From an uncultured Gammaproteobacteria bacterium (GTDB lineage Bacteria; Pseudomonadota; Gammaproteobacteria; Eutrophobiales; Eutrophobiaceae): DNA of 64,000 nucleotides. Positions 1 to 57,154 of the stretch are shown piece by piece. Where the stretch lies: NCBI GenBank assembly GCA_943788815.1, contig CALSRS010000003.1, forward strand, positions 161,193-225,192. Direction: 5' to 3'. Numbering within the stretch: the stretch's first letter is position 1; each line of letters opens with the position of its first letter. Made by a program: the position numbers and the translations under genes. The notes under the pieces are model-generated. The model was not told where the DNA came from. It was given only the letters and a program-made list of their open reading frames with translations, and did not search any database.

Positions 1-492
1 CCGGGTTGGTTAAATGTGGATATATTTCCTCCAGCAGATCTTACCTTGGATCTGAGAGAAGAGTTTCCATTTCCTGATGTAAGTTTTTCTTTAATTTATT
101 CAGAGCATTTTTTTGAACACATAGAATACCCCACAACAGCCAAATTATTTCTATCAGAATGTAATCGAGTTTTGAAAAAAGATGGAAAAATAAGATTAGC
201 TGTTCCTGATACTGTATGGCCAATGATGGAATATTGTGGTGTCAGTAATAATGGTTACTTTAATATTGCAAAAGAGGATTGGCATCCAGACTGGTGCACA
301 ACAAATATAGAACATATTAATTATCATTTCAGGCAGGACGGAGAGCATAAGTTTGCATACGATTTTGAGACTCTAGAAAAAATTCTGTTATTAACAGGCT
401 TTATCAATATTGAGCAGACAGAGTTTCAAGTAGATATAGATAGTGAAGCAAGAAAAAAAGGAACTTTATATATAAATGCAATAAAAGCATAA
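1..492 (+). CDS. Class I SAM-dependent methyltransferase (Methyltransf_11-like), 5'-truncated by the window edge
   Basis: The frame is open from nt 1 (PGWLNVDIFPPADL...). The ORF track shows the C-terminal part of a small MTase fold (DGKIRLAVPD, EHFFEHIEYP). The stop codon is 4 nt before the next GT gene. The region is AT-rich. Confidence 0.55.
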   Translation, partial: PGWLNVDIFPPADLTLDLREEFPFPDVSFSLIYSEHFFEHIEYPTTAKLFLSECNRVLKKDGKIRLAVPDTVWPMMEYCGVSNNGYFNIAKEDWHPDWCTTNIEHINYHFRQDGEHKFAYDFETLEKILLLTGFINIEQTEFQVDIDSEARKKGTLYINAIKA

Positions 493-495
493 TAG

Positions 496-1599
496 ATGAA
501 AATCCTTTACCTCACTAAGCGTTTCTATATGTCCAGGGACATAGTTAATGACCACTATGGTCGTTATTATGAAATTCCAAAATATCTTTCTATCATGGGA
601 CATGATGTGAGTTTATTTTGTCTTAGTTATAGGAATGCTAATGAAATAACAATATCTTCTGAAACAAATTTGACTGTGAAATCATGGAATTTGGGAATTA
701 ATCCAATTTATGGATTAATAAGACACTACAGTCGTCTTAATCAGATTGTTAGAGATTCAAGACCAGATATTATTATTGCTGGCTCAGACTGTTTTCAAGT
801 GATCATGGGGGCCCGTTTGGCAAAACATAATTCTATCCCAGTTATTGCTGATCTTTATGATAATTATGAAAGTTATAAGGCATCCAGAATCCCTCTCGTC
901 TTACTAATATTTTACCGACGTTTGCTTGATGTTGACTTCATTACAGTTATCTCCAACAAATTAAAAAAATTAATTATATCAAGGACAATATCAAATAAGA
1001 GAATAGATGTTATTGAAAATGCTGTGTCTGAAAATTTCCTTGGGAAAAATGAAAAAGATATGTCTAGAGAAGCATTTAATTTTAAATCAAATGAATTGTA
1101 TATAGGAACTGCTGGAAGTCTAAGTGTAGATAATGGTGTTAAGATCCTAATCGATGCCTTCACAGAACTATCTATTCAAAATAGTAAACTAAATTTAGTA
1201 CTTGCAGGTAGAATAGATAAAAATCTAAATATACCTGATAATGAAAATATTCATTATGTTGGAGACCTTCCACATAAACAAATTCCAATATTTTTATCTG
1301 CCCTGGATCTTGGTGTTATCTGTATTAAAGATAATGATTTTGGACGATATTGTTTTCCTCAGAAATTCTATGAGATGGTTGCATGTATGCTTCCATTAAT
1401 ATCTACCAATGTTGGTGAGATGAGCCGATTACTAAATGGAAATGAGCAATTATTATTTAAAGAAAATAATAAAGATGATTTAATTCGGGCAATTAATTAT
1501 CAGATTAAAAATAAAGTCATCCTCAATAATAAGGTCCCAACTTGGAAAGATCAGGCGGGAAAATTAGATAATATAATTAAGACCATGATAACTAATTAG
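496..1599 (+). CDS. Glycosyltransferase family 1 (GT4-like, retaining)
   Basis: 367 aa. The C-terminal half carries the GT1 E-X7-E-like signature (FPQKFYEMVACMLPLISTNVGEMS). It has a two Rossmann-domain layout and ATG start with the upstream gene ending 4 nt before. It is very AT-rich relative to the core genes. Confidence 0.65.
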   Translation: MKILYLTKRFYMSRDIVNDHYGRYYEIPKYLSIMGHDVSLFCLSYRNANEITISSETNLTVKSWNLGINPIYGLIRHYSRLNQIVRDSRPDIIIAGSDCFQVIMGARLAKHNSIPVIADLYDNYESYKASRIPLVLLIFYRRLLDVDFITVISNKLKKLIISRTISNKRIDVIENAVSENFLGKNEKDMSREAFNFKSNELYIGTAGSLSVDNGVKILIDAFTELSIQNSKLNLVLAGRIDKNLNIPDNENIHYVGDLPHKQIPIFLSALDLGVICIKDNDFGRYCFPQKFYEMVACMLPLISTNVGEMSRLLNGNEQLLFKENNKDDLIRAINYQIKNKVILNNKVPTWKDQAGKLDNIIKTMITN

Positions 1600-1626
1600 C
1601 AATCATGAGAGATTAAACAATAAATT

Positions 1627-2415
1627 TTAATTTACGTTGTTTTCACTGCGGATTAACTTGAAGAGTTCTTCGTGTAATTTTGAATTAGCCGTGAGAATAT
1701 TACCTGTTTTAAGGTAGGAATCATCATTGTTAATGCTGGTGACTATTGCTCCTGACTCCTGGAGCAAGAGGGCCCCCGCAGCCATGTCCCACTCTTTAAG
1801 GCCAAATTCCCAGAAACCATCTAATCGTCCGCATGCAACATAAGCAAGATCGAGTGATGCTGCCCCGGCCCTTCTTATACCGGCAGTTTTGGGGAAAATT
1901 GCTCTAAATATATTTATAAAATCTTCCAGCTTGTCACTTTCACCAAAAGGAAAGCCTGTCCCCAATAAGGCACCGTTAAGATTTTTGCGGTTACTTACAC
2001 GAATTTTTCTGCCGTTCAATTGTGATCCGGCCCCTTTGCTTGCAGTAAATAATTCTTGTTTAAAGGGATCATATATTACTGCATGTACAATTTTCTCTTT
2101 ATGTTTTACAGCAATTGATACTGCAAATTGGGGGAAACCATGAAGAAAATTGGTTGTACCATCCAGGGGATCAATTATCCATTGGTATTCTCCTGATCCT
2201 TGTTCCCCACTTTCTTCTGCAAGAATCGCGTGGTCAGGATAGGATTTTAGAATTGTATTAATAATGAGTTGTTCAGATTTCTTGTCAACTACAGAAACAT
2301 AGTCATGCATACTTTTATCAGTAACCTCAAGATTAGCTACGTCATCAAGGCTCTGAATAATAAAATCACCAGCTATTCGTGCTGCGCGTATTCCAATTGT
2401 TAGTAGAGGGTGCAT
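1627..2415 (-). CDS. suhB: Inositol-1-monophosphatase SuhB
   Basis: 262 aa with IMPase motifs (WIIDPLDGTTNFLHGFPQFAVSIA; EESGE; GAAS). ATG confirmed at 2413-2415. Confidence 0.9.
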   Translation of the reverse strand: MHPLLTIGIRAARIAGDFIIQSLDDVANLEVTDKSMHDYVSVVDKKSEQLIINTILKSYPDHAILAEESGEQGSGEYQWIIDPLDGTTNFLHGFPQFAVSIAVKHKEKIVHAVIYDPFKQELFTASKGAGSQLNGRKIRVSNRKNLNGALLGTGFPFGESDKLEDFINIFRAIFPKTAGIRRAGAASLDLAYVACGRLDGFWEFGLKEWDMAAGALLLQESGAIVTSINNDDSYLKTGNILTANSKLHEELFKLIRSENNVN

Positions 2416-2477
2416 AACTTAGAACAGATACTCAATTAATCGGATAAAACGGTATGTAAGTTTAGGATTGTAACCTA

Positions 2478-4046
2478 TTACCTTAAAGTAGTATTGATAA
2501 TTTTTTCAAGAAGAAAGATTTCTATATTGTTATTGCGGTCTTTAAAGTAAGCAACTTCATGGTAGTCATCATTTGATACTCTTTGCATGGGATAAAATTC
2601 AGGATATTTCCCCGCCGCATCATATACAGGCATAGCCAGTATGTAATTGCAGGCACTAGACCCATTAGTAAATTCTTCATCAGAGACTTCAGGACGAGGT
2701 AATACACTGGAAACTCTTTTGGCATGTAACATAATAATAGGCGCTTGTATCGAGTAAATACATTCATTCTCAGGAACAAAGTTTTGTATTTCTTTTATCG
2801 ATTTGACTATAAAGTATGAATTATTAATCAGTATCTCTGCATTTTCTATATTATTCGCCATTAACCAATTACGGTCGCGGCGATAAGGCATTAACTCTGT
2901 ATCAACACTTGCATAAGCTCTGCTTATATATTGATAAGACGAAGGGGATAATACAGAAATGATTAGAACAATTATTAGAGAATTTCCAAATAATCGTAAA
3001 TTATAGGACTTGTGAAAATGAAAATATTCCATGATGAAATACAATAGACAAATAGGAATTATAGGGTAAAGAAATCTAGATACAAAAAAAATACTGTCGT
3101 ATGGCCAAATTAAAACTATCGCCATATATAAAATTAAAAATATTGCATCAAGTTCAAATTTTCTGATTCGTTTCAGTAATCTTGTAATTGTAAATGTAAG
3201 TATAATAAGTAGTAGAATATTTGTTAAAATTTGATGCAATAATCCAGTCTCAATTCCTGAAAATAGCCAATATATCGACTTGTAGAATATAAGGATTTTC
3301 TGAGTAATGAGATCCAATGCATCTGTTGGGGATAAATTGAATATAGTAGAAGTGAATATATCTATATAACTTGACCGGTCAGGATTGCTTTGCCTTATAA
3401 AATTCCAAAATAGAAAAGGAAGTAAGCAAGCTACTGAATATATTGCTGAATATTTATTTTTTTTCAGAAACATATGAATAATAAAAGCGAAAACAAATGC
3501 AATTCCGATAGATCTTGTAAGAGATGCAAGCGCTACTAAAAGTACTATGCCAATCCAATCCCTGCTATCACGATTCACTTTGCAACTAAGTAACAATGCT
3601 CCGTAGATAAAAATCATAAAGAGAAACTCACTCCACAATTCTTGGGAAAAAATTATGCTGCCAGGCAACATTAGCAGCAGTAAAAATGAGCCATAGGCAA
3701 AAAAATAATTACCAGTGTTTTTGTATATCCATAATGCAGAAATTAAAAAAGACATAACTTGCATTGTGACTGTAATATTTGTTGCCGTTGCAAGGTTATT
3801 GGAGTTGCCACCGAATAAACCAAGTATCATTGGGTATACTGGTGGGAAATAACTGTTTGTACGGAGTAAATCATATATGGCCTGAGCGCCGTTAGTACTG
3901 AATGTGTACATATCAGCGAGTAACAAATAAACAGCGTCATCAGAATTCGACCCAGCAAGCTGGTCATTGTATGTTATAGAAAAATAAAAAATATATCCTG
4001 AAACTACTAGTAGAATGAAAAAGTAATATTTTAAATTGACGAACAT
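2478..4046 (-). CDS. Polytopic membrane protein, GT-C-fold glycosyltransferase-like (ArnT/PMT-like), function unknown
   Basis: 522 aa. The N-terminal ~380 aa is extremely hydrophobic with more than 10 predicted TM helices. An acidic DD motif lies in the first extracytoplasmic loop (GSNSDDAVYLLLADMY), as in GT-C enzymes. The C-terminal ~140 aa is soluble. It lies adjacent to a DPM1-like GT2 and is AT-rich. Confidence 0.45.
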   Translation of the reverse strand: MFVNLKYYFFILLVVSGYIFYFSITYNDQLAGSNSDDAVYLLLADMYTFSTNGAQAIYDLLRTNSYFPPVYPMILGLFGGNSNNLATATNITVTMQVMSFLISALWIYKNTGNYFFAYGSFLLLLMLPGSIIFSQELWSEFLFMIFIYGALLLSCKVNRDSRDWIGIVLLVALASLTRSIGIAFVFAFIIHMFLKKNKYSAIYSVACLLPFLFWNFIRQSNPDRSSYIDIFTSTIFNLSPTDALDLITQKILIFYKSIYWLFSGIETGLLHQILTNILLLIILTFTITRLLKRIRKFELDAIFLILYMAIVLIWPYDSIFFVSRFLYPIIPICLLYFIMEYFHFHKSYNLRLFGNSLIIVLIISVLSPSSYQYISRAYASVDTELMPYRRDRNWLMANNIENAEILINNSYFIVKSIKEIQNFVPENECIYSIQAPIIMLHAKRVSSVLPRPEVSDEEFTNGSSACNYILAMPVYDAAGKYPEFYPMQRVSNDDYHEVAYFKDRNNNIEIFLLEKIINTTLR

Positions 4047-4113
4047 ATGATCAGAGAGTCATATTCTTTAATATTTTTGAAGCTGAACATTAATAAAACG
4101 TGAGGCTGTTAAT

Positions 4114-4815
4114 TTATATTCTGAGAAAACCATATTTTATTATGCAATAAATCGCACTTATCCCATCACGCCAGTTGATCTTCTTCCCCTCTGCATATGT
4201 TCTTCCAGCATATGATATACCAACTTCATATATTTTTATTTCAGGAATACGGGAGATTTTGATTGTCACTTCTGGCTCAAATCCAAATCGGTCTTCCGTT
4301 AATTCAATGCTCTTAATTATTTCTTTCTTAAATAATTTATAGCAGGTCTCCATATCTGTAAGATTTAAATCACTAAACATATTGCAAAATAAAGTTAAAA
4401 ATCTATTACCAATGGAGTGCCAGAAATATAGCACTCGGTGAGATTCTCCTCCCAAAAAGCGACTTCCGTAAACCACATCCGCATTATTCTTGATCACAGG
4501 TTCTATCATTAAGCAATATTCAGCTGGATCGTATTCAAGGTCAGCATCCTGAATAATTATATAATCACCTTCAGCTATACTTATACCTGTTCTAATCGCC
4601 GCCCCTTTTCCCTGGTTTGAATTATGTAATTCAAGCAAATCTATATATTTGTTTAGTTTTCCAGAAAGTAAATCGCGAGTGCCGTCAGTTGATCCATCAT
4701 CAACAACAATAACCTGTTTATTTTTCACTGGAGAAGAGTTGACCTTTTCCAGCAAGCGTTCTATGGTCGCTTCTTCGTTAAAACAAGGAATAATTATTGA
4801 AAGAGTGTATGACAT
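4114..4815 (-). CDS. GT2 family polyprenyl-phosphate sugar transferase (DPM1/ArnC-like catalytic domain, no C-terminal TM anchor)
   Basis: 233 aa: LSIIIPCFNEE...VVDDGSTDGT...QDADLEYDP (GT-A DXD region). ATG at 4813-4815. The stop codon lies 67 nt after the start codon of the GT-C gene on the same strand. Confidence 0.75.
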   Translation of the reverse strand: MSYTLSIIIPCFNEEATIERLLEKVNSSPVKNKQVIVVDDGSTDGTRDLLSGKLNKYIDLLELHNSNQGKGAAIRTGISIAEGDYIIIQDADLEYDPAEYCLMIEPVIKNNADVVYGSRFLGGESHRVLYFWHSIGNRFLTLFCNMFSDLNLTDMETCYKLFKKEIIKSIELTEDRFGFEPEVTIKISRIPEIKIYEVGISYAGRTYAEGKKINWRDGISAIYCIIKYGFLRI

Positions 4816-4948
4816 GTTATTTTATATAATTATGAATATGGAGTATGAAAATATATTATCTTTTGGATAAATTATAATTGTGTTTGTTTCAAGCTGAGCA
4901 TTATAAATTATCGGGATTATTAAAACTTATTTTTTGAAAAAAAAACAT

Positions 4949-5692
4949 ATGAATTCGGTAACATTACATAATATTAAGATAATTTTAGTTGAAACCACTC
5001 ATCCTGGGAATATAGGTGCGTCTGCCAGAGCAATGAAAACCATGGGTTTAGGAGCACTCAGACTAGTAAACCCAAAATTATTTCCCAGTGCAGATGCTAC
5101 AGTCCGTGCCGCAGGTGCAGATGACATTCTATCAGAAGCAGAAATTTATGATTCACTTGCCGATGCAGTTGGAGATTGCAAGTATCTTTATGGAACAAGT
5201 ACCAGGAAACGTTCTTTACAATGCGAAGTCTTAAGTCCTGAGTCTGCAACGAATGAAATTATTAATGTCATGGACAATGACATTAATATAGGGATAGTGT
5301 TTGGAAGGGAGAGAACTGGATTGACGAACAGTGAACTGGATCTCTGTAATAAGATGGTTGCGATACCCACAAATCCAGAATTTTCATCTCTCAATATTGC
5401 CTCTGCAGTTCAGATCATATGTTATGAAATAATAAAAAGATCTCTCATTACAGGCCAGGATAATGTGTCTGCTAAATACGAAAATACTCCTGTAGATAGT
5501 TCTGAATTGGCCCGGCTTTATGCTCATCTGGAACAATGTTTGATAGATATTGATTTCCTGGATCCCTTAAAACCCAGACGATTGATGAGGAGGTTGAAGC
5601 AATTATTTAACCGGACAGAAATGGATCAGAATGAATATAATATTTTACGAGGGATACTGACAGCAGTTCAGGAAAAAATTAAACAAAAATAA
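4949..5692 (+). CDS. trmJ: tRNA (cytidine/uridine-2'-O)-methyltransferase TrmJ (SpoU family)
   Basis: IKIILVETTHPGNIGASARAMKTMGL aligns with the E. coli TrmJ N-terminus. The ORF-track start at 4934 is TTG. The in-frame ATG at 4949 gives MNSVTLHNIKI..., matching the E. coli start. Confidence 0.85.
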   Translation: MNSVTLHNIKIILVETTHPGNIGASARAMKTMGLGALRLVNPKLFPSADATVRAAGADDILSEAEIYDSLADAVGDCKYLYGTSTRKRSLQCEVLSPESATNEIINVMDNDINIGIVFGRERTGLTNSELDLCNKMVAIPTNPEFSSLNIASAVQIICYEIIKRSLITGQDNVSAKYENTPVDSSELARLYAHLEQCLIDIDFLDPLKPRRLMRRLKQLFNRTEMDQNEYNILRGILTAVQEKIKQK

Positions 5693-6728
5693 CTTGCTCA
5701 TCTTTGTTAGAGACGGCTGAGGAAATTTCTCCCAGACGCCATGCGATTTCACCCATAGATTGTAACTGGCTAATAACTGGGTCCGTATCCTTTTCCTCTA
5801 CGATTATTACCAAACCAACACCACAGTTAAATACCCGGTACATTTCATCCTGGGAGATATTTCCGGTTTCTTGTAACCAGTTAAAGATTTCTGGACGTTG
5901 CCATGAATTCTGGTCTATAGAAAGTTTAACGGTTTCTGGGAGTATCCTCGGTAAATTTTCCACTAAGCCACCACCGGTAATATGAGAAATACCTTTTACC
6001 GTATGTCTTTTACAAATCTCAAGTACCGAATTTACGTATATTCGTGTTGGTGTTAATAGTACTTCCTGCAGACTTTTATCATCGAGCTTATCTGTTAATT
6101 TCGTATTGGAAATTTCAAGTACCTTACGAACCAGAGAAAAACCATTTGAATGCAAACCACTAGAAGCAAGACCAATAGCAACGTGTCCGGGTTCGATTGA
6201 ATTACCATCAATAATATTATCTTTTTCCACTACCCCTACACAGAACCCTGCGAGGTCATAATCGTTTCCCTGATACATCCCAGGCATTTCTGCAGTTTCA
6301 CCACCCAGCAGCGCACAGTTCGCCAATTCACATCCCTTGACTATGCCTTGAATGATAGATTCTCCCTGCTTAACATCAAGTTTACCCGTAGCAAAATAAT
6401 CCAGGAAAAATAATGGTTCAGCACCCAGTACCAGTAAGTCATTAACACACATTGCGACCAGATCAATACCGACTTCATCGTGTTTATTTGCCTCAATGGC
6501 GATTTTTAATTTTGTGCCTACTCCATCTGTCCCTGAGACGAGCACCGGCTTTTTATATGGCAGGGAGGAAATATCAAAGAGTCCTCCAAAACCCCCAATA
6601 TTCCCAAGTACACCCTGGCGCTTAGTCCTTTTAACCTGGTTTTTAATTCGATCAACTAATTCATTACCACTATTGATATCAACACCGGCATCGGAATAGT
6701 TCAATTTTGTCTTTTTTGGCTGCACCAT
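5679..6728 (-). CDS. purM: Phosphoribosylformylglycinamidine cyclo-ligase (AIR synthetase) PurM
   Basis: MVQPKKTKLNYSDAGVDINSGNELVDRIK matches the PurM N-terminus. The ORF-track 395-aa version, starting at 6866, overlaps the divergent DUF2066 gene. Trimming to the ATG at 6726-6728 gives 350 aa. Confidence 0.9.
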   Translation of the reverse strand: MVQPKKTKLNYSDAGVDINSGNELVDRIKNQVKRTKRQGVLGNIGGFGGLFDISSLPYKKPVLVSGTDGVGTKLKIAIEANKHDEVGIDLVAMCVNDLLVLGAEPLFFLDYFATGKLDVKQGESIIQGIVKGCELANCALLGGETAEMPGMYQGNDYDLAGFCVGVVEKDNIIDGNSIEPGHVAIGLASSGLHSNGFSLVRKVLEISNTKLTDKLDDKSLQEVLLTPTRIYVNSVLEICKRHTVKGISHITGGGLVENLPRILPETVKLSIDQNSWQRPEIFNWLQETGNISQDEMYRVFNCGVGLVIIVEEKDTDPVISQLQSMGEIAWRLGEISSAVSNKDEQVIFV

Positions 6729-11944: not shown

Positions 11945-13552
11945 TCAAGCTGACACGTTTTTATTTATTGTAAATTGTTCAAATCCAGTAGTAGATTCTG
12001 TTAATGATCCTGTAATTGCCTTGATGCTGTTGCCCTTTATATTAAGCTCAATTTCTCGGTTTTTAATGAACATACCTTTATCTGTAATTATAGAATTACC
12101 ATTGCCTGTATTATTACTTAACAAAAACGCTCGCCGATAACGCATGTCCTGTGCACTTCCAGTGCATGCTCTGATTGCGGCGGTCCGTGTATCAGTTGAT
12201 ATAATCTGTGCCCCAATCCTGAATATTTCTCCATCTTTTATCATCAGCCAACGCACCGTCCCTATCGCCCACTTTTTATCAGAATTTTTAGTATCTATAA
12301 TAACCAGTTCTCCAACCTTAATATTATGTGCAGGTTTTAATTTACGTATAACTGCAAATCCACGTGAGCTTTGGTCAACTAATTCCCAAATGTCAGTTTT
12401 ATAATCCTTCATAGGGGCAGTTGGATTGTTGATTATCTCATATTCCAGATCTTCTTCTGACTCAATGATTGGAGGAGGAGAGAACTCTTCCTGATTATTA
12501 AGGAAATAATATACGTCGTTTAAACCGCACGCGAGTTCAAGCTTGCCAGAACGTTGCTTTCTGGGACTACTACGTTTGGGTGGTCGCCCCCAAACAACGG
12601 TTAGGTGTTCCAGAATCATTTTTGCAAAGTAAGGTGAAATAACAATAGATTTTTCCGGTCGCCCACTAGATTCTATGGTGTGTAAATGTTCATTTATTTT
12701 TTTATAAAGTTTTGTTGCATCAATAATGCGATGTTTATCACTAGCCTTGCTCAAGTTGAATTTTGAATAAGGTATAGGAATATTATCTGACTGTAGATTT
12801 GCGACAAACCGATTAATATCATTTTCAGTTTTTTCAAATGGTGAAATTTCAATTAATCTTATCCAATCACTCAGTTGTTCATAAATTTCCCAAATCGCAC
12901 CATAAGGAAGGTGATGGGGATCTGCTAATGAAGCTAGTAGGATTCGTTTATATGCGTCAGCGATTGTATTAATATTTTTGTTGGGAAATGATTCCGAAGA
13001 TGCAATGGTTGTATTTTCTTGCTTTAGAGATTCTGCAAAATCATAAATAAAGTTTATTTCTTTCCAAACATTTTTAGGTGCTGGTGAATATTCCAGATAA
13101 CTGAAAATAAGAGCGTGTGATAAATAATTTAAAGAGTATAAAAGATTTGCCAATGGTGGCTTGGATTGTTTCCAGAGTGTTTTTTTCTTAAGAGTATCTT
13201 CAGCCGATAATCTACATGCCTTGGCAAGGTTGGTTGCAATATTTTTTAATACTCTGATTTGTTCCTGTGCCGTTTCAATAGATTGTAAGGTATGTTGGGC
13301 ACCAGCCTTAATTTGTGAATCAATATAATACTGATACGGTTGTGCATATAATTCCACAAGTTCCAGGCGAGTTGATGGCTTAACATCTTGCTCATTGGTT
13401 AATGCTGTTGCTTGAGCCAATAATTGGCTGGTTTTTTTAAAATCAATATAGGGCAGTTTCTCCAGCCACTCTTCAATGTACATAGGCCGGGTATCAATCT
13501 GCAGGCCATTTGAGGTTTTTCGAGTTGGAATTTCAAATATGCTTGATGTCAT
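11945..13552 (-). CDS. Conserved hypothetical protein, 535 aa, possible PilZ-like C-terminal domain
   Basis: Long ORF with ATG confirmed, syntenic between yihY and acyP/proS. The C-terminus contains DQSSRGFAV, which is D-x-S-x-x-G-like, followed by a beta-rich segment. No clear RxxxR motif lies upstream of it. Confidence 0.5.
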   Translation of the reverse strand: MTSSIFEIPTRKTSNGLQIDTRPMYIEEWLEKLPYIDFKKTSQLLAQATALTNEQDVKPSTRLELVELYAQPYQYYIDSQIKAGAQHTLQSIETAQEQIRVLKNIATNLAKACRLSAEDTLKKKTLWKQSKPPLANLLYSLNYLSHALIFSYLEYSPAPKNVWKEINFIYDFAESLKQENTTIASSESFPNKNINTIADAYKRILLASLADPHHLPYGAIWEIYEQLSDWIRLIEISPFEKTENDINRFVANLQSDNIPIPYSKFNLSKASDKHRIIDATKLYKKINEHLHTIESSGRPEKSIVISPYFAKMILEHLTVVWGRPPKRSSPRKQRSGKLELACGLNDVYYFLNNQEEFSPPPIIESEEDLEYEIINNPTAPMKDYKTDIWELVDQSSRGFAVIRKLKPAHNIKVGELVIIDTKNSDKKWAIGTVRWLMIKDGEIFRIGAQIISTDTRTAAIRACTGSAQDMRYRRAFLLSNNTGNGNSIITDKGMFIKNREIELNIKGNSIKAITGSLTESTTGFEQFTINKNVSA

Positions 13553-42014: not shown

Positions 42015-43349
42015 TTAATCTGCTTTGTTTTGTGATAACACCATTCCTTTTAGAACATTAAGCGCTTCATATAATGCATAATCTGATTGGGATAATGTCA
42101 GTTCCTGCTCAGATTCTGAACTTGATTGTGATTGAGGATTTTCGGGTGAACTCGATGTGTCATCAGCTTGCTGCTCATTATTACTTTCAAGGTGACCACT
42201 CAAGTTTGCTTCGGAAACCCTTAATACATTTTGTTTAATTAATTCAATCTTTACTTCATCAATGGCGATATCAGGTACTATTCCAGATGCCTGTATAGAC
42301 CTGCCTGATGGAGTGTAATAACGTGCTGTGGTTAGCTTTAAAGCAGATTCGTTTGTCATTGGGAGTATCGTCTGTACAGAGCCCTTGCCAAATGTTTTTT
42401 GTCCGATTATTAAAGCTCTGTTGTGATCCTGTAAAGCGCCAGCAACAATTTCAGATGCAGAGGCGGATCCGCCGTTCACAAGGACTACCATGGGGGCGCT
42501 GTTTATCAGATCTACTGGTTTTGCATCAAATGTCAGTTTTGAGTCATTGACTCTTCCTTCCGTATAAACGATCAAACCCTCTTCAAGAAATAAATCTGAA
42601 ATAGCCACAGCACCACTTAAAATACCACCTGGATTATTTCTTAGATCCAGTATCAGGCCCTTTAAACTACCATCATTCTCTTCTTTTAATGACTCCAGGA
42701 CTCGTTGTGCATCATTCGCTGTATTTGTCTGGAAATTTGAAATTCTCAAGTAACCATAACCAGGTTCAAGAGTTCTGGTCCACGCACTTTTTCGAGTGAT
42801 AGTCTCTCTGGTAATTGTTAGCACGAGAGGTTGATCCAGTCCTTCTCTTGCAATTGTCAGATTAATATCCGTACCCGGTTTGCCTCGCATTATTTCTATA
42901 GCTGCACCTAATGACATACCTTTTACGGGTGAATCATCAAGCCTGATAATCAAGTCTCCAGCCTGTATACCAGCTTTTTGCGCGGGCGTGTCATCAATTG
43001 GTGCTATAACCTTTACAAAACCGTTCTCCATACTAATTTCTATACCCAGTCCACCAAATTCACCACTGGTACCTTCTTGTAAATTTTGAAACGCAGTTTC
43101 GTCCAGGTATGAAGAATGTGGATCCAGACCTTCTAGCAACCCTCGAATGGCGCTTTCAATTAATTCCTTATCATCAATAGATTCAACGTAATCGTTCTTA
43201 ACTTTATCGAATACTTCAGCAAATATTCGAATTTCATTAAATGGAATTTCCTGCGTTGAGTTTTGCGGTTCATCTTGTGCAATAAGATTTGTACCGAAAA
43301 ATGCCAGAAAAAGTGATAGCGGGATTTGATGGGATAATATTTTTTTCAT
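42015..43349 (-). CDS. ctpA: Carboxyl-terminal processing protease CtpA (S41A) with PDZ domain
   Basis: S41 catalytic Ser region GGSASASEIVAGALQD, K in TFGKGSVQ, and a PDZ domain. Confidence 0.9.
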   Translation of the reverse strand: MKKILSHQIPLSLFLAFFGTNLIAQDEPQNSTQEIPFNEIRIFAEVFDKVKNDYVESIDDKELIESAIRGLLEGLDPHSSYLDETAFQNLQEGTSGEFGGLGIEISMENGFVKVIAPIDDTPAQKAGIQAGDLIIRLDDSPVKGMSLGAAIEIMRGKPGTDINLTIAREGLDQPLVLTITRETITRKSAWTRTLEPGYGYLRISNFQTNTANDAQRVLESLKEENDGSLKGLILDLRNNPGGILSGAVAISDLFLEEGLIVYTEGRVNDSKLTFDAKPVDLINSAPMVVLVNGGSASASEIVAGALQDHNRALIIGQKTFGKGSVQTILPMTNESALKLTTARYYTPSGRSIQASGIVPDIAIDEVKIELIKQNVLRVSEANLSGHLESNNEQQADDTSSSPENPQSQSSSESEQELTLSQSDYALYEALNVLKGMVLSQNKAD

Positions 43350-53567: not shown

Positions 53568-54923
53568 TTAGTGTTTAATGTCTATCCCAAGCATTTTTAG
53601 TTTTCTGTATAAATGTGTCCTTTCCATGCCTACGTTTTGTGCAATCTTACTTACACTACCATTTGATTGTTTTAGCTGATATTCAAGATAGGCCTTTTCA
53701 AATTTTTCCCTTGCTTCGCGTAATGGCAGATCAAAATTCCGTAAATCATTGTCTGCCCTGTACCCAGATTGTTCTCCCAATGCTTTTTCAACTTCTTCAC
53801 TTTCAATCGTTTCATCCAACCCCAGAATCAGTAATCTTTGAACCAGGTTTTTAAGTTCACGTATATTGCCTGGCCAGCTGTACATTCTTAAACGGTTTTT
53901 TGCCGAGGTTGAGAAGTGGCGATAGGGTAAACGTTCTTCAGATACAAAATAATTCACATAGTATTCAAGTAATTCCGGGACATCTTCAAAATGGTCACGT
54001 AGCGGCTGAACTAATACTGGCAAAACATTAAGTTGAAAATATAAATCACCTCTAAACTTTTCTTCCTTAATGGCATCTTCAATGGATTTACTTGTTGCAG
54101 TAATAACCCTGGCATTCAGTGGTACTGGATCACCACCACCCACTCTGGTAAAACTGGATTTTTCGAGTGTATCTTGCAATTTAGCTTGTGCATTGGCTTC
54201 AAGATCTACAATGTCTTTAAGGAAGATTATTCCATTGCCAGCTTCATCAAGGAGTCCCTTATTGATGCTGCCATTTTCATTCTTTCCAAATATTTCCCCA
54301 GAAAACTCTTCAGCTGTTAACGCAGATACATTAACCGTAATAAATGGTTCATCTTTCCTGTTACTTTTTCCGTGTATATATCTTGCGATTGCTTCCTTGT
54401 CAGTTCCTGATTCTCCGATGATTAAAAGGGGATTATCGCGGTCAGCAATTTTTTCAATAAGAGCTCTGATTTTTCCAACAACTTCACTTTTTCCAATTAT
54501 TTCAATCGGAAATGCTTGCTCCCCTTTTAGTTTCTGATTTTCCTTTTCTAGCCATCTGGTCTTGATGGCATTTTTAATGGTTAAGACCAACTTTGCCATG
54601 GACAATGGTTTTTCCAGAAAATCGCATGCACCTAATCTTGTAGCTTCCACAGCAGTTTCAACCGTGCCATGTCCAGACATGATAATAACCGGTGAATTGA
54701 AACCCTCAGTTTGGTTCCATTCTTTAAGTAAGGTAATGCCATCAGTATCTGGCATCCAGATGTCCAGGAGTACAAGCACAGGATTGGAATTGTTAATTAC
54801 TGCACGGGCTTCTGCTGCATCATTTGCAACGGTTACGTCAAACCCTTCGTCTTCAAGTATATCTTTTACAAGATTACAGATGTCCGGTTCGTCATCAACA
54901 ACCAGAATTTCGCCCAAACTCAT
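53568..54923 (-). CDS. ntrX: Sigma-54-dependent response regulator (NtrX-like, REC + AAA+ + Fis-type HTH)
   Basis: REC domain (ILVVDDEPDI...LLDIWMPDTDG), AAA+ (GESGTDKEAIA), and a C-terminal HTH. It overlaps the kinase gene by 4 nt. Confidence 0.75.
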   Translation of the reverse strand: MSLGEILVVDDEPDICNLVKDILEDEGFDVTVANDAAEARAVINNSNPVLVLLDIWMPDTDGITLLKEWNQTEGFNSPVIIMSGHGTVETAVEATRLGACDFLEKPLSMAKLVLTIKNAIKTRWLEKENQKLKGEQAFPIEIIGKSEVVGKIRALIEKIADRDNPLLIIGESGTDKEAIARYIHGKSNRKDEPFITVNVSALTAEEFSGEIFGKNENGSINKGLLDEAGNGIIFLKDIVDLEANAQAKLQDTLEKSSFTRVGGGDPVPLNARVITATSKSIEDAIKEEKFRGDLYFQLNVLPVLVQPLRDHFEDVPELLEYYVNYFVSEERLPYRHFSTSAKNRLRMYSWPGNIRELKNLVQRLLILGLDETIESEEVEKALGEQSGYRADNDLRNFDLPLREAREKFEKAYLEYQLKQSNGSVSKIAQNVGMERTHLYRKLKMLGIDIKH

Positions 54924-57154
54924 AATACTTGCCTATTATATATTGATTTTAATTCTTCATTTTTGGCTTGCATCACTGCAGGTAGCCTGATAATTGCACA
55001 TGCCCCGCATGAGTCAGGATTATTTTCTAACCAGACTATGCCACCATGTTCTTCTATAATTTTTTTAACTATCGCCAGACCCAAGCCTGTGCCCTTCGGT
55101 TTTGTTGTAACATAAGGATCAAAGATATTATCAATAATTTCATCGGAAATCCCTGATCCCATATCTTTTATCCTAATTTCAACAAAATCCATTCCATGTT
55201 CGGAAATATAATCGGTTTTGATATCGATTGCAGTTAGTTTCTTGTCGCCCATGGCTTCAAAAGCATTATTTAGTAGATTATTAAATACCCGCCGTATCCG
55301 ATTGGGGTCACCCTTAATATAGGGCAATGTTTCTGATAGTTCGAGTGTAACAGACATGTCAGAATTTAAGGTATTGTATAAATCTATAACTTCCTGGGTA
55401 AGCTGGTTCAAATTGATAATTTCATGAGATATGGTGGGAGTATGCGCATACTCTGAAAAAGTGTTAACCATATCTTTCATGGTCTCAACCTGTTGAATGA
55501 TCGTATTTGTAAGCTTGTCCATTGCTTCTCCCTGTGATGCATCCATTTTTTTCAGGTACTTTATGCGCAGTCTTTCAGCAGCGAGCTGGATTGGAGTAAG
55601 TGGGTTCTTTATTTCATGCGCTAATCTTCTTGCCATTTCACTCCAGGCAGCATCTTTTTGTCCTTGTATAAGAGCAGTAATATCATCGAACACAATAACC
55701 TGGGTTTTGGAATCTACAATTTCCTGCATGTATAAGGTTGTGCCACTACTCATCAATATTTGTCGGCCACTAGTGCCAAATATGGTTACCTGTTCACGCC
55801 ATTCATTAATATTTTTTTCATTATGATATTCAATTGTGTTAAGCAAGGGTTCCAGGTAAGCATAATCTTCAACAATTTTATTCAAAGATTGCCCAGTCAT
55901 TTCACTAATATCTATCCCAAGTACCTGATTACTGCTTAAATTCGCAGTTCTGATAGTATTATTTTGATCAACAACCAATACCCCTGATGAGAGTCTGCCT
56001 AATACGGCCTCCAGGTATACTTTCTGGGTTTCAGCCTGTAGCTGACTGGTTTTTGCCTGATCTCGTGCAGATGAGATTTTTCTTGTCATATCATTAAATG
56101 ATGCAACAAGAAATCCCAGTTCATCATTGCCAGGTACTGGTAATTGCTTACTGTAATCTCCTTGTGCAACAGATTTTGTCCCATCAGCGAGATTTCGAAT
56201 TGGTGCGGCCAATCTATTAGCAGAATAAAACGAAGCCCAAAGCGCAGAAAAAATACTAAACAATAAGACCAGCGTTAATATAGAGGCGAAGCCTACTTTT
56301 AGCTGATCTCTTAAATAGGTTAATTCCTGATATTCCCCGTATGTTATTTGTATATTTGTTGCGAGTGTATTAATTCTTTCTGTAGTCGGAAATAGTGCCA
56401 GTACAATTCTGGGTTCAATACCTATAGATATAATTGGAATGTTTACGACAGTTTGAACGGAAAAGTCAGATTGTGTAGTGGAGGTCAAACCTACGTAGTT
56501 ATTTCCCTGCTGTACCTGAAATAATATTGAATTATTTGGAGATGCTGGGACTAACTCACCCAAACTACTGCTTGAGGCTAAAAAGTTCCCCTGCTTTGAC
56601 ATGATAGTTAATTCTTCAGCGCCAATTCGGCTCCTGATTTCATCTATTTCAACAAGTAGCGTTTCATCAGATAGCAATGAAAAATCATTCGCCGCCTGCT
56701 CTGTAAGATTAAGCATATCTTTCATTCTTTCATTCAGAGAAATTTTGCTAAGTTCAAGTGAATCGTTTAATGCCTGTTCCACCTTTGGGTTAAACCAGCT
56801 GTCTATTCCCTGATATAAGAAATTAAGAGAGAAGTAATACAAAATAAGTACAGGGATGGTTGATAAAATTGCAAACATCGAAACTGTTTTGAACGTCATC
56901 CTTGAACCGGGTGATTTATTTTTTAATTGCACAACCAGATTTTTAAGGTTGGCAAATATCAATATCACAAGAACAAGTAGACCCAGGGCATTAAATATTA
57001 ACAAACCTGACATATACTCACCAAACCTGTCAGGGTTTTGTAAGGCGTCACCCATTAACACCAGGGAAGCCAACATGAACAGGAATAGAATTATTCCCAG
57101 TACAAGAATGATGTTCTTATCGTTTTTTTCGGGTTTATCTAATTGACCATTCAT
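54920..57154 (-). CDS. ntrY: Sensor histidine kinase (NtrY-like: 4 TM + HAMP + PAS + HisKA + HATPase)
   Basis: H-box HEIKNPLTPI; N, G1 and G2 boxes (NNLLNNAFEAM; DMGSGI; GLGLAIVKKIIEEHGG). The N-terminal region is polytopic. Confidence 0.75.
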   Translation of the reverse strand: MNGQLDKPEKNDKNIILVLGIILFLFMLASLVLMGDALQNPDRFGEYMSGLLIFNALGLLVLVILIFANLKNLVVQLKNKSPGSRMTFKTVSMFAILSTIPVLILYYFSLNFLYQGIDSWFNPKVEQALNDSLELSKISLNERMKDMLNLTEQAANDFSLLSDETLLVEIDEIRSRIGAEELTIMSKQGNFLASSSSLGELVPASPNNSILFQVQQGNNYVGLTSTTQSDFSVQTVVNIPIISIGIEPRIVLALFPTTERINTLATNIQITYGEYQELTYLRDQLKVGFASILTLVLLFSIFSALWASFYSANRLAAPIRNLADGTKSVAQGDYSKQLPVPGNDELGFLVASFNDMTRKISSARDQAKTSQLQAETQKVYLEAVLGRLSSGVLVVDQNNTIRTANLSSNQVLGIDISEMTGQSLNKIVEDYAYLEPLLNTIEYHNEKNINEWREQVTIFGTSGRQILMSSGTTLYMQEIVDSKTQVIVFDDITALIQGQKDAAWSEMARRLAHEIKNPLTPIQLAAERLRIKYLKKMDASQGEAMDKLTNTIIQQVETMKDMVNTFSEYAHTPTISHEIINLNQLTQEVIDLYNTLNSDMSVTLELSETLPYIKGDPNRIRRVFNNLLNNAFEAMGDKKLTAIDIKTDYISEHGMDFVEIRIKDMGSGISDEIIDNIFDPYVTTKPKGTGLGLAIVKKIIEEHGGIVWLENNPDSCGACAIIRLPAVMQAKNEELKSIYNRQVL

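Follow-up and report, generated by a model that had tools for sequence, protein, structure and literature searches.

Two adjacent genes in the genome of an uncultured gammaproteobacterium of the Eutrophobiaceae appear to supply two of the three components needed for lipid-linked glycosylation outside the cytoplasm, namely a soluble family 2 glycosyltransferase (GT2) and a membrane glycosyltransferase of 522 residues with the GT-C fold. They lie in a stretch of 64,000 nucleotides (contig CALSRS010000003.1 of assembly GCA_943788815.1, positions 161,193 to 225,192 of the forward strand), which is referred to throughout as the window. The most likely acceptor is the polysaccharide of an adjacent wzm/wzt locus, and we put the probability of this reading as a whole at roughly 0.6. 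A preliminary description of the same DNA had proposed a two-component lipid-linked glycosylation module, and the tests it named as decisive, i.e. structural similarity to GT-C enzymes, the membrane topology (judged here by the positive-inside rule) and the nature of the best GT2 match, all came out in its favour. The adjacent wzm/wzt locus and the association of the GT-C family with pilin loci in relatives go beyond that description.

The two genes are co-directional on the minus strand and 67 nucleotides apart, as originally described:

4114..4815, minus strand: GT2 gene, encoding a soluble glycosyltransferase of the DPM1/DPMS type (233 aa), a predicted polyprenyl-phosphate sugar synthase
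4047..4113, minus strand: gap of 67 nucleotides between the GT2 and GT-C genes, with no terminator-like site
2478..4046, minus strand: gene for the GT-C-fold membrane glycosyltransferase (522 aa, 11 transmembrane (TM) helices)

An Uncatalogued Family of GT-C Enzymes

The 522-residue protein has no match in Pfam (E<=0.01) or NCBIfam, and when it was compared with all Protein Data Bank (PDB) chains nothing was found at E<=10, either by phmmer or with a 38-sequence profile. A word-indexed search recovered about 40 full-length homologues, none of them named and none with a Pfam domain, and a repeat with the broad alignment A3 returned the same ~40 proteins, for which a cluster look-up yielded no names. 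When 1.84 billion cluster representatives were searched exhaustively with a profile, the matches numbered 9394 proteins at E<=1e-3, 2677 at E<=1e-10 and 585 at E<=1e-30, the last figure being a count of clusters at 50% identity. Most of the best 150 matches listed have lengths of 490-570 aa, and a few are shorter fragments. The protein represents a sizeable family rather than a singleton.

Structure comparison reveals what the sequence searches do not. The polytopic membrane domain of the model is similar to solved GT-C enzymes, with listed values of 22.2 for ALG12, 18.8 for AglB, 18.7 for Pmt4, 17.9 for ArnT (405 residues aligned), 17.5 for ALG3, 16.7 for STT3B, 16.3 for AftA, 14.4 for PimE and 14.2 for PglB. 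When 75 diverse family members were scanned, 22 weakly matched Pfam PMT_2 (PF13231; best E 1.3e-10) and a few matched TMEM260-like, GT22, PMT or GT87; these matches provide a bridge, at the level of sequence, from the family to known GT-C enzymes. The protein is a member of a GT-C family that is fairly abundant and uncatalogued so far, and the GT-C-like character first proposed for it agrees with its resemblance to ALG12, ArnT, Pmt4, PglB and the other enzymes above. It is not an oligosaccharyltransferase, an identity that was rejected because the 522-residue sequence, read directly, has no WWDYG motif.

Predicted Topology and Conserved Residues of the GT-C Protein

The helices of the AF2 model, taken together with hydropathy, give 11 TM helices, where more than 10 had been counted before. 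If the N terminus is placed in the cytoplasm, lysine and arginine in 38 homologues account for 8.9 in 31 residues (29%) of the five short cytoplasmic loops and for 5.3 in 121 residues (4.4%) of the periplasmic loops. This bias, interpreted with the positive-inside rule, predicts that the aspartate-bearing loop and the C-terminal domain face the periplasm. A periplasmic location is strongly favoured on this rule for loop 1 (residues 26-84), which consists of three short helices and carries Asp-36, for a further 49-residue loop at 220-268, and for residues 378-522, which form an alpha/beta domain in the AF2 model and correspond to the soluble C-terminal domain of ~140 aa in the preliminary description.

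Asp-36, the first residue of a loop-1 helix (35-45), is invariant in alignments of 38, 75 and 140 sequences. The DD motif reported earlier is present in that Asp-36 and Asp-37 begin the first helix of the loop, but only the former is invariant; Asp-37 is kept in the close clade and not across the wider family, so that the motif shared by the family reads D-x-A-x-Y-L-L and not DD. Pro-68, Arg-178 and Arg-324 are invariant in the 75- and 140-sequence alignments and Glu-140, Pro-128 and Trp-314 in the 75-sequence alignment, while the W314-P315 pair is invariant or nearly so. From the pattern of solved GT-C enzymes we infer that Asp-36 would act as the catalytic base and that Arg-178 and Arg-324, at the periplasmic membrane interface, would bind the phosphate of the donor. 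Two cysteines of the C-terminal domain, Cys-429 and Cys-466, are conserved in >90% of sequences, which fits a putative disulfide in the periplasm.

The GT2 Resembles Polyprenyl-phosphate Sugar Synthases

The 233-residue protein matches Pfam Glycos_transf_2 (E 5e-35), and its best NCBIfam matches are all polyprenyl-phosphate glycosyltransferases (AglJ, PpgS, a Dol-P-hexose transferase and ArnC), although it stays under every NCBIfam equivalog cutoff (AglJ 113 bits versus 325, PpgS 63.5 versus 370, ArnC 53.4 versus 529). Its best sequence match in the PDB is the dolichyl-phosphate mannose synthase (DPMS) of Pyrococcus furiosus (E 2e-18, residues 3-213), followed by ArnC and GtrB, and in structure comparison DPMS is again the best match, four Z units ahead and with the full length covered. 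The protein has the GT-A fold, carries a DXD motif (D90-A-D92) that does not vary among 42 homologues, and resembles a solved polyprenyl-phosphate glycosyltransferase over its full length; the original likening to a polyprenyl-phosphate sugar synthase stands.

No TM helix is detected in the GT2, whose highest Kyte-Doolittle mean over 19 residues, 0.75, stays under the threshold of 1.6, so that the C-terminal TM helices said to be missing are indeed missing. Amphipathic helices at ~130-148 and 215-230 could lie at the membrane interface. With >8000 homologues, many at 66-79% identity, the GT2 is far more conserved and widespread than its GT-C partner.

Linkage of the GT2 and GT-C Genes in Relatives

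The two genes recur together in other genomes, the loci of which are given L numbers here. In the trmJ/suhB region an orthologous GT2 (68-75% identity) lies directly upstream of the GT-C gene in L005, L009, L011, L012, L035 and L039, is separated from it by one methyltransferase gene in L041, and stands 5 kb away in L034. L042 is an unrelated neighbourhood with an operon that encodes, in this order, an epimerase, a GT2 (69% identity), a methyltransferase, a PMT_2 protein (614 aa) and a family GT-C (521 aa; E 4e-142). A metagenome scan seeded with the GT2 yielded 48 loci with usable flanks, with GT2s at 55-62% identity. Here a large polytopic protein is present in 25 loci and a member of the 522-residue family directly beside the GT2 in three (L049, L088 and L122); ten adjacent polytopic proteins were scanned and gave three PMT_2, one GT87 and one Wzy_C plus TPR match, with five lacking any Pfam match. 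The recurrence of this soluble GT2 family beside GT-C enzymes supports a role in supplying the donor. It is only within the close clade that the two genes themselves stay next to each other.

Genes for an SDR-type sugar epimerase/dehydratase and a class I methyltransferase of 235-250 aa occur together with the GT2 in several relatives (L034:2848-7995, L041:6246-6998, L042:5044-7384), and L034 further encodes a radical SAM protein, an MBOAT protein and a sulfotransferase. All these genes may define the donor sugar in those relatives; in the window none lies between the GT2 and GT-C genes. Two of the metagenome-assembled genomes, L011 and L025, are labelled "Klebsiella pneumoniae", a name that looks wrong for both records, as they share the synteny of these low-G+C gammaproteobacteria and their housekeeping proteins are only ~60-70% identical to those of the window.

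The Adjacent wzm/wzt Locus and the Proposed Pathway

Contigs of the same species (L048:1-11104) cover the DNA just to the left of the window and carry a complete ABC-transporter-dependent glycan operon, in the order wzm, wzt (with Wzt_C), sulfotransferase, STELLO, a faint Glyco_transf_7C match, two genes without a Pfam match, three GT2 genes, methyltransferase and GT4. Position 1 of the window falls within the methyltransferase gene of this operon, the GT2/GT-C pair lies at the 3' edge of the operon, and the pair is likewise contiguous with comparable, variable glycan clusters in L012, L034, L035 and L039. The features around the pair are as follows:

16..1599, plus strand: 3' end of the glycan-assembly operon, i.e. 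the methyltransferase gene (cut by the window edge) and a GT4 glycosyltransferase gene, both from Pfam matches; converges on the suhB, GT-C and GT2 genes
1627..2415, minus strand: suhB, inositol monophosphatase family (NCBIfam PRK10757, E 6e-88); a positional neighbour not counted in the module
4934..5692, divergent: trmJ, flanking the pair on the GT2 side

With suhB and trmJ as its flanks, the pair has no GtrA or other flippase gene next to it, in agreement with the preliminary description. suhB is co-directional with the GT-C gene and begins 62 nucleotides downstream of it, and its position relative to the pair differs between genomes. A promoter and terminator scan was uninformative overall, with 14 promoter-like sites against 20 expected and terminator-like sites only within coding sequence; as it placed no terminator-like site in the GT-C/suhB gap either, a single three-gene transcript of GT2, GT-C and suhB is possible.

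We infer from fold and homology that the GT2 would act as a peripheral protein at the cytoplasmic face of the inner membrane, where it would charge undecaprenyl phosphate with one sugar taken from a nucleotide sugar, in the manner of DPM1, GtrB, ArnC and PpgS. Flipping of the lipid-phosphate sugar to the periplasm would then depend on a protein whose gene is not in the vicinity, and the 522-residue GT-C would pass the sugar to a periplasmic acceptor, with Asp-36 as the base and Arg-178 and Arg-324 holding the donor phosphate. The undecaprenyl-diphosphate-linked polysaccharide that the neighbouring wzm/wzt locus makes and exports is the proposed acceptor, in which case the reaction would be a side-chain addition after polymerisation, comparable to those of Klebsiella gml and Citrobacter ORF12-15. 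Periplasmic addition of side chains to ABC-exported O-polysaccharides by a lipid-phosphate sugar synthase and a GT-C enzyme is an established process (PMC11127046).

Several observations weigh against this proposal. Its cytoplasmic charging and periplasmic transfer steps are predictions from sequence and fold, and no GtrA, SMR or MATE flippase gene is linked to the pair in the Pfam gene tables of ~10 related loci. L010 and L025 are syntenic and have the GT-C without an adjacent GT2, and only three of the 48 GT2-seeded loci carry the 522-residue family, so the GT2 is not an exclusive partner of that family. In the present genome suhB stands between the pair and the glycan operon, and in relatives the association with pilin loci indicates another acceptor. 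For this genome we nevertheless regard the exported polysaccharide as the most likely acceptor, with pilin as its main rival.

Pilin Loci of Relatives and Alternative Readings

The association with pilin genes is recurrent. A family gene lies between pilR and pilA in L014 and L037, three tandem copies of the family GT-C stand beside pilA in L013, and L015, L018, L021, L028 and L040 are likewise pilin-linked, L040 being a large pilin island. In 25 species-level loci, a PilA-type pilin gene occurs within 10 kb of the family member in six and pilS, pilR or pilA in eight, where chance would give ~0.2 as estimated from one pilA locus per ~2.5-4 Mb genome. Both contexts are united in L041, in which trmJ, suhB, GT2, methyltransferase and GT-C are directly followed by a GT4, a GT2, a 619-aa protein, a pilin and a TMEM260-like protein, and in a rough neighbour-joining tree the clade of the window protein is nested among pilin-linked members. 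These data would be explained if the GT-C O-glycosylated the major type IV pilin in the periplasm with a lipid-phosphate sugar made by the GT2, a TfpW-like function in a GT-C that looks unrelated to TfpW. We consider this a serious rival but the less likely reading for the present pair, as no pilin gene was found in the window by a motif scan or, by Pfam, in the 10 kb to its left, and more distant family members have housekeeping neighbours only. The pilin loci moreover have their own candidate transferase and synthase, a membrane/TPR protein of 573-626 aa and an AglJ/PgfS-like GT2 of 286-292 aa, so that the family GT-C could be present there as a passenger or as an additional decorating enzyme. 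Still more doubtful is that the GT-C modifies lipid A or the core of lipopolysaccharide like ArnT, FlmK, LgmB or RgtA-D, with the GT2 in the role of ArnC, FlmF2 or RgtE: its domain organization would allow this, yet it has no sequence similarity to ArnT, the window has no ArnA, ArnB or ArnD-like genes, deacetylase or ArnE/F genes nearby, and neither the pilin nor the O-polysaccharide contexts of relatives point to lipid A, all of which makes this the least probable of the readings considered.

The two genes could also be mere neighbours, the GT2 serving as a cytoplasmic transferase of the adjacent polysaccharide pathway or acting on a small soluble phospho-acceptor in the manner of GpgS and MpgS, and the GT-C drawing its donor from elsewhere, possibly an undecaprenyl-diphosphate oligosaccharide like that used by oligosaccharyltransferases. 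We judge this quite improbable, given that at least three different gene orders and two unrelated neighbourhoods show the linkage, that the GT2 family is found repeatedly beside other GT-C families, that DPMS leads the GT2 matches by four Z units over the full length, and that the C-terminal domain of the GT-C has no WWDYG motif.

The modules of the pilin loci merit description in their own right. They comprise one or two pilA genes, a membrane protein, a GT2 and sometimes a GT4 (L014:11832-15701; also L015, L018, L021, L028, L040 and L013). The membrane protein of 573-626 aa often has C-terminal TPR repeats and an N-terminal part without a Pfam match, and the 286-292-aa GT2 is AglJ/PgfS/ArnC-like. 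By analogy with the arrangement described for TfpW, the module looks like a pilin glycosylation system of the TfpW type that uses a GT2-made donor (bioRxiv 10.1101/2020.04.19.049825). Membership of the 607-aa and 573-aa proteins of these loci in the 522-residue family was ruled out, since hhalign against the family profile shows no relationship. The three tandem paralogues of L013:9824-14984 (identical to L008:6211-11371) are 31-34% identical to the window protein and divergent next to pilA, and L015 has two tandem copies. The TMEM260-like protein of L041 (13514-15535, minus strand; 673 aa) belongs to the eukaryotic-type protein O-mannosyltransferase family and lies directly beside pilA, with the GT2, methyltransferase and GT-C genes of the syntenic region upstream of it.

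FimW is linked to the regulation of type IV pili. The window encodes a 535-aa protein (11945-13552, minus strand) with FimW_N and FimW_C domains, as assigned by Pfam to the identical gene in L001, and on this ground the organism probably makes type IV pili although the window is without a pilin gene. Matches resembling pilR and pilS at 53568-57154 proved to be regulators of the NtrX/NtrY type and not PilSR.

Together, the family context raises the possibility that the family originally O-glycosylated type IV pilins in the periplasm, adding single sugars supplied by lipid-phosphate donors. The family would then be a second pilin-directed lineage, independent of TfpW and lacking TPR repeats, that in genomes like the present one was either co-opted by an O-polysaccharide locus or continues to target pilin from a distance, and it would probably found a new CAZy family. 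We offer this as a tentative suggestion, with the odds against it.

Comparison with Known Systems

The closest functional parallels are the three-component systems for periplasmic glycosylation of O-polysaccharides, i.e. GtrA/GtrB/Gtr* of Shigella and Salmonella, galactose addition in Klebsiella, and ORF12-15 (GT136) of Citrobacter youngae (PMC11127046). The window module shares with them the pairing of a lipid-phosphate sugar synthase, of the GT2 type or equivalent, with a GT-C transferase encoded by an adjacent gene, the location at the edge of an O-polysaccharide locus (ABC-transporter-dependent ones included), and an acidic residue in the first loop of the GT-C that is predicted to be periplasmic. 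It differs in that no flippase gene is linked in any locus examined, in that the two TM helices at the C terminus of GtrB have no counterpart in the synthase, and in that no sequence similarity between the GT-C and any solved GT-C is detectable. The GT2 is also without the four TM helices that end the P. furiosus DPMS (PDB 5mlz); human DPM1 and mycobacterial PpgS/Ppm1 are synthases that do without TM helices.

With ArnT, PMT and PMT_2-type enzymes (PDB 5f15, 6p2r, 9e61) the GT-C shares the overall fold and, as predicted, the N-in topology, an extracytoplasmic loop 1 with the catalytic Asp (Asp-36 being the candidate counterpart), and a C-terminal extracytoplasmic domain. ArnT has 13 TM helices, whereas the window protein has 11 and is not encoded near genes of the arn pathway. 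The GT-C enzyme that arabinosylates pilin in Pseudomonas aeruginosa group IV strains, TfpW, is a 646-aa protein with a C-terminal TPR domain, and its donor comes from the phosphoribosyl pyrophosphate/DprE pathway rather than from a GT2 (bioRxiv 10.1101/2020.04.19.049825). The window protein and TfpW are both GT-C-type proteins with 11 TM helices and a periplasmic C-terminal domain predicted, and for neither has a flippase been identified; the DDX motif in periplasmic loop 1 of TfpW is counted among the common features, and relatives of the window protein (L013, L014, L037, L040) are encoded next to pilA, as TfpW is. Unlike TfpW, the window protein has 522 aa, a small domain of mixed alpha/beta structure in the model and no TPR match in Pfam, and its gene is not next to pilA. 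Membership in the TfpW family was rejected on this architecture, i.e. the lack of a TPR domain and of a neighbouring pilA. The module appears to work like the Gtr-type three-component systems and like the DPM1/PMT, ArnC/ArnT and PpgS/Rv3779 pairs, with a GT-C that lies outside every curated sequence model.

Other Features of the Window

The remainder of the window is made up of housekeeping genes (proS, ilvI, ilvC, leuA, rlmD, ubiB, gpmI, ntrYX and an S41 peptidase gene). At 1-6000 the glycosyltransferase genes have ~33-35% G+C, compared with 38-43% in most other parts of the window, a low value that is typical for surface-glycan loci and would fit an exchange of the cluster by horizontal transfer. 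Averaged, the locus stands at ~33% G+C and the rest of the window at ~39%. An Rfam match to "Rickettsia sRNA47" (RF02800; 42332-42644, plus strand) scores 68.2 bits, over the gathering score, and lies antisense within the conserved gene for an S41 C-terminal processing peptidase (42015..43349, minus strand); the match probably reflects conservation of the coding sequence and not a small RNA.

Implications

GT-C enzymes decorate surface glycans and pili after export, and these decorations alter serotype, phage susceptibility and immune recognition. The 522-residue family escapes Pfam, NCBIfam and PDB sequence searches and yet is common in environmental Gammaproteobacteria, so that genome annotation misses a set of periplasmic glycosylation steps. 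Its link to both wzm/wzt glycan loci and pilin loci provides concrete candidate acceptors, and the recurrent soluble DPMS-like GT2 offers a handle for locating further unannotated GT-C partners. The system is of a known kind, built around an uncatalogued family of membrane enzymes, and it leaves the current understanding of these pathways unchallenged.

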